From the NCBI GenBank assembly GCA_964016885.1, contig OZ024740.1, forward strand, positions 381,486,001 through 381,550,000: 64,000 bases of DNA, read 5' to 3'. Below are positions 29,422-29,935 of this stretch, piece by piece. Under the pieces are notes generated by a model. That model had not been told where the DNA came from. It made no database searches and saw only the letters and a program-made list of their open reading frames with translations. The first letter of the stretch is position 1. Every line of letters begins with the position of its first letter. Origin of the DNA: Eledone cirrhosa. Taxonomy: Eukaryota. The position numbers were made by a program, and so were the translations under genes.

Positions 29422-29424
<3 letters not shown>

Positions 29425-29928
29425 AAGGGAGATAAGCTGACATATCTCTGTTTCGTACTGCTGATACTCCTTTGTTTGCTGAAAAAAGAAGTGACATAGT
29501 CACTACTTTAAAACAATAGCGCAAGGTCTTCAAAATGCTTTTAATTAAGCATATAATGTATTGCAAAATACACTATATATACATTCTATATCGCTATTTC
29601 AGAGCACCAATTCTAATTTTCAATTTTTGCTGGACTGGCAACCGTTCTGTATAATCAGTTCCTGATTATTACTGGAATTCTATAAGAATCCAACATTCAT
29701 AATTTTCACCAGGCGAAGGGAGTGCTAAGCTCTGAGGAGTACCAACAGTACGAAACAGAGATCTGTCAGTTTATCTCCCCTTGTTTGCTGAAAAAAGAAG
29801 TAAGTGACATAATCACTACTTTAAAACAATAGCGAAAGGTCTTCAAAATGCTTTTAATTAAGCATACAGTGTATTGCAAAATACACTATATATACATTCA
29901 CATATATATCGCTATTTCAGAGCACCAA

Positions 29929-29935
<7 letters not shown>
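29422..29935 (+). mobile_element. Non-coding mini Penelope-like / retrozyme-like element: 5' inversion, ~150-bp direct repeats, hammerhead, within (TA)n
   Basis: 29470-29617 repeats at 29779-29935; 29422-29471 is the reverse complement of 29735-29784. Confidence 0.8.
29726..29773 (+). ncRNA. Minimal type I hammerhead ribozyme
   Basis: TAAGCT-CTGAGGA-GTAC caaca GTAC-GAAA-CAG agat CTG-TC-AGTTTA; GUC triplet. Confidence 0.88.

Follow-up and report, generated by a model that had tools for sequence, protein, structure and literature searches.

The class of animal non-LTR retrozymes and its proposed Penelope link are already known. Movement of these retrozymes by Penelope enzymes was proposed from co-occurrence and from similarity to Penelope pseudo-LTRs (pLTRs) (PMC7229834; bioRxiv 10.64898/2026.07.22.740005). 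In Xenopus, 24 of 57 retrozyme families match known elements (21/22 Penelope-like elements, PLEs), and only 1 of 9 predicted retrozymes was cleaved in vitro (bioRxiv 10.64898/2026.07.22.740005). In vitro work with PAc found that hammerhead mutants do not affect insertion, that uncut RNA is the main substrate and that the start site is alike on both strands (PMC11167929). A hammerhead core with a U3-A8 pair is a known natural variant, present in the Schistosoma PLE Cercyon (PMC4209133). No published description of retrozyme insertion ends, or of the 318-bp family reported here, was found in a search chiefly within the open literature.

The window analysed here (the whole stretch of 64,000 nucleotides from Eledone cirrhosa) contains at 29422-29935 an element that is likely a copy of a non-LTR retrozyme family, whose high-copy 318-bp unit was probably inserted in trans by a Penelope-like enzyme. 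The original prediction described a miniature element of Penelope-type architecture without an ORF, and this was borne out: the element has no ATG ORF longer than 39 aa, and the circular monomer none longer than 28 aa. The (TA)n tracts on both sides and the inverted ribozyme fragment at the 5′ end were also as described. The proposed element size of ~510 bp is not that of the unit, which is a 318-bp monomer with a 5′ extent that varies among copies; the window copy consists of 1.5 head-to-tail turns of this monomer and a 50-bp inverted arm. Its features are as follows.

29369-29422, no strand: left (TA)27 tract, the likely target site; the 3′ end of another repeat, on its left, shares this tract
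29422-29471, minus strand: inverted arm, monomer 118-167, beginning midway in the hammerhead core and including the cut site and the stem I 3′ strand
29469-29617, plus strand: partial upstream turn, monomer 161-318; the first direct repeat, 149 bp
29618-29935, plus strand: one full 318-bp monomer, GC 35%
29703-29722 with 29775-29794, plus strand: predicted 20-bp helix with the hammerhead at its tip; two-sided changes in 7 of 20 pairs
29727-29772, plus strand: type I hammerhead, C3-G8 form, with a predicted cut after GTC at 29767 (monomer 150/151)
29900-29909, plus strand: site A, an AT tract within the unit (monomer 283-292) and one of the two 3′ ends favoured by the family
29910-29935, plus strand: 26-nt tail ending at site B (monomer 318, or a few bases more); the 3′ end of the window copy
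29934-29995, no strand: right (AT)31 tract, likely target site

The direct repeats at 29469-29617 (149 bp) and 29778-29935 (158 bp), whose starts lie 309-318 bp apart, are distinguished by 5 substitutions and 2 indels. They are the overlap produced by a partial tandem of the 318-bp monomer; the predicted ~150-bp direct repeats are thus present, but not as fixed pLTRs around a core. The inverted piece is identical to 29735-29784 at 45 of 50 positions. It had been thought to keep a perfect stem I and so to support the fold. Only the 3′ strand of stem I (AGCTT) is present, and the piece, which lacks the 5′ strand and the core CTG, is therefore not a second ribozyme; support for the fold comes instead from covariation across copies. 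The inverted piece preserves the family state AGCTT; in the direct copy, a C-to-T substitution results in a G-U pair. The two arms are joined through a 3-nt overlap (CCT). The direct arm begins at site B and is 476 nt long, and the inverted arm ends at monomer position 167, within 7 nt of the stop of the direct arm (161). This inverted arm is atypical in that it does not obey the pairing rule for outer ends established below; internal twin priming could account for it, as could a deletion that later extended into the TA tract. No target-site duplication is readable within the (TA)n tract. The window monomer is 97.2% identical to the majority sequence of the 30 closest copies (9 changes in 318 bases). 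Just left of the element, at 29150-29368, lies a different non-coding repeat with TA flanks and a 56-bp inverted repeat (29167-29222 and 29237-29292); related pieces with two recurring end points were seen in ~30 of 250 fetched loci.

As had been expected, other copies exist: a 28-mer from the 3′ end of the monomer has 1,937 exact matches in the genome (control, 0), and none of the copies mapped extends into an RT ORF between the repeats. The repeat also turned up as contigs in three runs from one sample, which are uninformative about RNA. A genome search with 29618-29935 returned 3,116 candidates, 40 of which were scored. The loci mapped were the best 30 and a further 80, the latter sampled consecutively over the initial 119 Mb of contig C1. 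In these loci the 318-bp monomer is repeated head to tail, with common 3′ ends and with 5′ ends that are scattered around the unit and differ in nearly every copy. Arm lengths range from 31 to 996 nt and junctions are variable; 70 of 181 arms are longer than one unit and 6 of 181 longer than two turns. Near-full units also form two arrays, one with 16 of them and one with 14 (14-17 units). Exact pattern matches number 1,308 for the U3-A8 form of the hammerhead and 400 for the C3-G8 subfamily, the minority to which the window copy belongs. A copy at L252 2211-2504 is 74.5% identical to the young form and keeps the U3-A8 core, with a palindromic stem III of different sequence; the family is thus older than the bursts sampled. 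At L059 1390-2017 a deleted unit of 163 bp (204-318 joined to 1-51), which has no hammerhead, forms a four-copy tandem ending at site B.

The hammerhead is composed of AAGCT, CTGAGGA, stem II GTAC/GTAC, GAAA, stem III CAG/CTG, TC and AGTTT. The original prediction of a canonical minimal hammerhead with a GUC site holds for the hammerhead and its GTC; with a 3-bp helix III, however, it is not the min-HHR of PMC4209133. A descriptor search found the motif in the window and gave 0 matches in 20 of 20 block-shuffled windows. An Rfam search gave no hammerhead match, either at the gathering score or at E up to 10, and the isolated 76-nt hammerhead stretch folds no more stably than shuffles (z 0.22). 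In 53 copies from different loci aligned to a 34-pair structure, 95.1% of cells are paired and 11 of 34 pairs show two-sided change; this level was reached by 0 of 500 shuffles, and slid controls gave 45-49%. The 53 copies are related, so each swap represents one or few events. The catalytic 3-8 pair was U3-A8 in 92 of 124 passes, C3-G8 in 27 and mixed in 5; the family thus contains a natural swap of this pair. The first two pairs of stem II also switch, between G-C and A-U (90/24) and between U-A and C-G (89/24). Judged from these alignments, the hammerhead fold is under selection at the RNA level, as indicated by compensatory changes in the catalytic pair and the stems.

Of 127 motifs, 40 have a perfectly palindromic stem III, with two different sequences (34 and 6); in the subfamily of the window copy (44 motifs) the palindrome has one mismatch. 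The palindromic stem III agrees with cleavage, here predicted, of the RNA as dimers. The majority monomer folded as a circle has a predicted energy of -90.8 kcal/mol, compared to -53.5 ± 4.3 kcal/mol for 100 shuffles. For the window copy as a circle the value is -73.7 kcal/mol, and its active fold lies 2.8 kcal/mol above the minimum.

Insertion ends were scored in a positional sample selected on site B. After removal of 4 duplicates and 3 tandem arrays, its 80 loci gave 73 inserts: 48 simple head-to-head, 20 single-arm, 5 complex and no simple tail-to-tail. The 68 simple inserts have 116 arms, 56 of which end at site B (316-326), 43 at site A (289-292) and 17 elsewhere. Thus 99 of 116 arms end at one or other of two sites that are 26 nt apart. 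Ends at A or B abut (AT)n in 87 of 99 cases, compared to 1 of 17 for the other ends. Genome-wide, exact matches at site A run on in AT in 952 cases, some of which may be tract expansions, and read on in 983.

The two sites are used in pairs. Among B-selected head-to-head inserts with both ends at A or B, there are 29 A+B, 2 B+B and 1 A+A; a further 16 have one end elsewhere. As the first sample was selected on B, a second sample of 40 loci was selected on A. It yielded 22 A+B pairs (two of which resemble one duplicated insert), 1 A+A pair (the complex locus L197 could count as another) and 7 pairs with one end elsewhere. The excess of A+B over free choice is significant in both samples (p 0.0005 for B-selected; p 0.001 for A-selected, or 0.005 with L197). 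The 26-nt tail is therefore confined to one end in 29 of 32 B-selected and 22 of 23 A-selected pairs. This one-of-each rule is a genomic pattern; for PAc in vitro, the two strands did not differ in start site (PMC11167929). Head-to-head inserts are rarely symmetric about one point (5 of 71), and in L034 and many other inserts one arm carries sequence missing from the other. In the B-selected loci A arms seemed, by eye, to extend beyond B arms; this difference disappeared in the A-selected sample (10 versus 12) and is attributed to ascertainment.

In 103 pooled inserts the cut site is crossed by 125 of 179 arms, with at least two crossings in 15. Because most arms read through the cut site, a single cut monomer is not the usual template, which must be uncut or circular. 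Arms and successive turns within one insert differ by 6-7%, compared to 11.5% between loci, and 84 minority variants are common to both arms of an insert, compared to 4.8 expected. This similarity indicates that both arms derive from one subfamily. Variants shared by paired arms or turns include none private to a locus, and they carry no RNA-editing signature that would mark a single circle (14 shared A>G versus 19 T>C), so both a circle and an uncut multimer are compatible with these data. When segments were compared with their partner and with the best match at any other locus, the partner was the closer of the two in only 0 of 40 and 6 of 92 pairs. Neighbouring units in the two sampled arrays diverge by 11-12%; as they now stand, these arrays are too diverse to be the present source. 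In the first sample 5′ ends fell at the cut site in 3 of 95 passes, compared to a 4.2% background. Pooled 5′ ends at 151-170 number 27 with 13.4 expected (scan-corrected p 0.03), several of them being alignment stops from diverged subfamilies. In four inserts (L033, L085, L183 and L218) an arm starts at the cut site, which hints weakly at occasional use of cut RNA as template.

Penelope-type elements, the potential source of the enzyme, are present in the window:

22707-28387: broken 5.7-kb Penelope-type element with 1.7-kb direct repeats (22707-24421 and 26702-28387, 93%) and (TA)n on both sides
24317 and 28284: hammerheads of the 5.7-kb element
25146-26672: interrupted RT frame of the 5.7-kb element
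61022-64000, minus strand: copy of a young Penelope-type family, continuing in L111; many intact 784-aa ORFs across the family

The retrozyme had been seen as a miniature mirror of the 5.7-kb element with unrelated sequence. Direct repeats and (TA)n are indeed common to both, but the larger neighbour has no inverted arm. Sequence comparisons covered the 5.7-kb family, a family 71% related to it with intact ORFs of ~894 aa, the 784-aa family and a fourth family (L251-L275). The monomer showed no similarity to the pLTRs of these four families beyond that of shuffles (46, 21, 102 and 187 of 300 scored as high, respectively), in accord with the predicted lack of relatedness to the 5.7-kb element; an autonomous partner sharing the repeat, also envisaged, is absent from these four. 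For the Penelope-type ORFs neither Pfam nor solved structures yielded an RT or GIY-YIG match; their ESM Atlas neighbours fall in GIY-YIG and RVT_1 clusters at 0.96-0.97. The ORFs are named Penelope-type from these predicted neighbours, from layout and, in part, from sequence motifs that we take to be characteristic.

The 784-aa family has a tail of ~140 nt and head-to-head inserts with one tailed and one untailed end. Of 40 loci of this family, ten of them hand-picked, 19 were scored as head-to-head, and A+B pairing was seen in every one (19 of 19). The descriptor found no standard hammerhead in its pLTR, though a CTGAGGA core is present. The fourth family has a U3-A8 hammerhead with palindromic stem III and two 3′ ends, with the long tail in 14 of 24 copies. 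Three Penelope families (L153, L173, L150) share ACTCCGGA just past the untailed end, and the retrozyme does not have it.

No recurrent fusion of the unit to PLE coding sequence was seen in the loci mapped. There are two single chimeras: in L180 (8261-8333) the unit is joined head to head with the 5.7-kb family via a 4-nt overlap, and in L210 (306-1475) the PLE 3′ region of the fourth family is joined in sense to the unit. Of 25 loci with this PLE 3′ region, only L210 continues into the unit; the other 24 enter their own hammerhead. The chimeras may reflect co-integration, a template switch or deletion. The two implicate different families. L147, L022 and L081 proved to be cases of neighbours within one TA tract.

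Other repeats were noted in the window. At 53888-54704 a 441-bp unit is repeated 1.8 times (97%), each repeat having its own type I hammerhead (54057 and 54498); this is probably another retrozyme family. A type I hammerhead with a long stem II lies beside a TA tract at 14027 (minus strand), and a similar motif occurs in L142. Two broken RT-bearing non-LTR elements of another type lie at 3929-7358 and 47446-50999 (minus strand).

In the mechanism that we propose for the 318-bp family, the hammerhead would cut tandem transcripts, which would then be ligated to circles; the frequent palindromes in stem III make cutting as dimers probable. Both strands of a (TA)n tract would be cleaved by a Penelope RT/GIY-YIG protein, and each DNA end would serve as a cDNA primer, one end at A and the other at B, with a common RNA or source as template. 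The RT would pass the cut site, running up to three turns, and the two cDNA ends would be joined, often via short overlaps. More tentatively, and with somewhat less than even confidence, we suggest that one complex loads both cut (TA)n ends on a single circular ribozyme RNA, always as A + B, and that both polymerases circle it. If true, this would explain the one-sided tail and the inverted pLTR of Penelope elements and would be genomic evidence for retrozyme circles as a transposition template.

The same class and enzyme could operate on a different template, a long uncut tandem transcript from genomic arrays, with the ribozyme acting elsewhere in the cycle. Arrays of 14-17 units do exist, the independence of PAc insertion from the hammerhead and its use of uncut RNA point the same way, and so does the lack of locus-private shared variants and editing marks. 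Yet array neighbours are 11-12% apart, compared to ~6% within arms (more uniform arrays may be missed), and arms seldom exceed two turns; on balance we regard an uncut template as possible but doubtful. The unit might also be the solo pLTR of an unsampled autonomous Penelope family, its copies being mostly 5′-truncated ends of that family. Xenopus retrozymes are often homologous to PLE pLTRs (bioRxiv 10.64898/2026.07.22.740005), and L210 would provide such a junction, but in the loci mapped the sequence upstream of a full unit is another turn, an inverted arm or unrelated flank. The 24 loci that enter their own hammerhead and the lack of homology in four Penelope families also make this origin improbable.

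Most improbable is the reading that the unit belongs to satellites or SINE/MITE-like repeats and was dispersed by DNA recombination or by a LINE; the hammerhead would then be incidental and the inversions fold-backs. The long arrays, the AT-rich 3′ ends that could anneal to (TA)n and the five symmetric head-to-head inserts would suit it. Against it stand the compensatory changes in the ribozyme, an A+B rule common to an intact Penelope family, and inserts such as L034, in which one arm holds sequence absent from the other, an outcome impossible by fold-back. Nor do the copies have poly(A), or the fixed terminal inverted repeats and fixed length of MITEs; two Pol III B-box patterns expected of a tRNA-derived SINE are absent on both strands, with one loose A-box match. 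The covariation and the end-pairing counts largely refute this explanation.

The family combines features of non-LTR retrozymes and of non-autonomous PLEs. Each unit carries a type I hammerhead, is short and non-coding, has a GC content of 35% (below 45%) and occurs head to tail up to multimers. The partial tandem, 5′ truncation, inverted 5′ copy, one-end tail and AT-rich target are those of non-autonomous PLEs, and the unit has no ORF, hence none of the RT plus GIY-YIG type that marks an autonomous PLE. The family is thus, by its sequence, likely a new member of the animal non-LTR retrozymes. It adds evidence drawn from the insertions (two fixed start points, each used once per insertion, and arms that read across the cut site) for a unit in which no homology to pLTRs was detected. 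With its start sites mapped, a template of 318 nt is directly suited to the published in vitro Penelope assay.

The 318-bp family resembles described metazoan non-LTR retrozymes (PMC7229834) in its non-coding monomer of ~300 bp, GC below 45%, single type I hammerhead in each unit, arrangement in anything from partial tandems to multimers, strongly folded predicted circle and proposed Penelope helper. In the parts consulted, the papers on these retrozymes give no account of insertion ends, of inversions or of a pair of 3′ start sites. Unlike the retrozymes described there, most 318-bp copies carry a U3-A8 core, and whereas many Xenopus families have pLTR homology, the 318-bp unit has none in four PLE families. 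Cleavage and circles have been shown for some published families; for the present one both are predicted. With EN+ PLEs (PMC8557442, PMC3846280; for PAc, PMC11167929) the family shares partial tandems, an inverted 5′-truncated copy, an optional one-end tail, (TA)n targets, a hammerhead upstream of the 3′ end and two internal start sites; it differs in having no ORF and a tail of 26 nt, compared to the published 30-40. Non-autonomous Chlamys elements generally resemble an autonomous family at the 3′ end, whereas the 318-bp unit resembles none of the four tested. Like Cercyon (PMC4209133), the family has a compensatory 3-8 swap and a palindromic helix III suited to dimer cleavage. Unlike in Cercyon as there described, C3-G8 and U3-A8 both occur as subfamilies of one non-coding unit.

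In L1 twin priming, head-to-head arms are joined via short overlaps. The window copy is similar, its inverted arm ending within 7 nt of the start of the direct arm. Most copies, in contrast, have outer ends at fixed sites and arms that overlap in sequence, an arrangement that does not arise from a single pass over one linear monomer.
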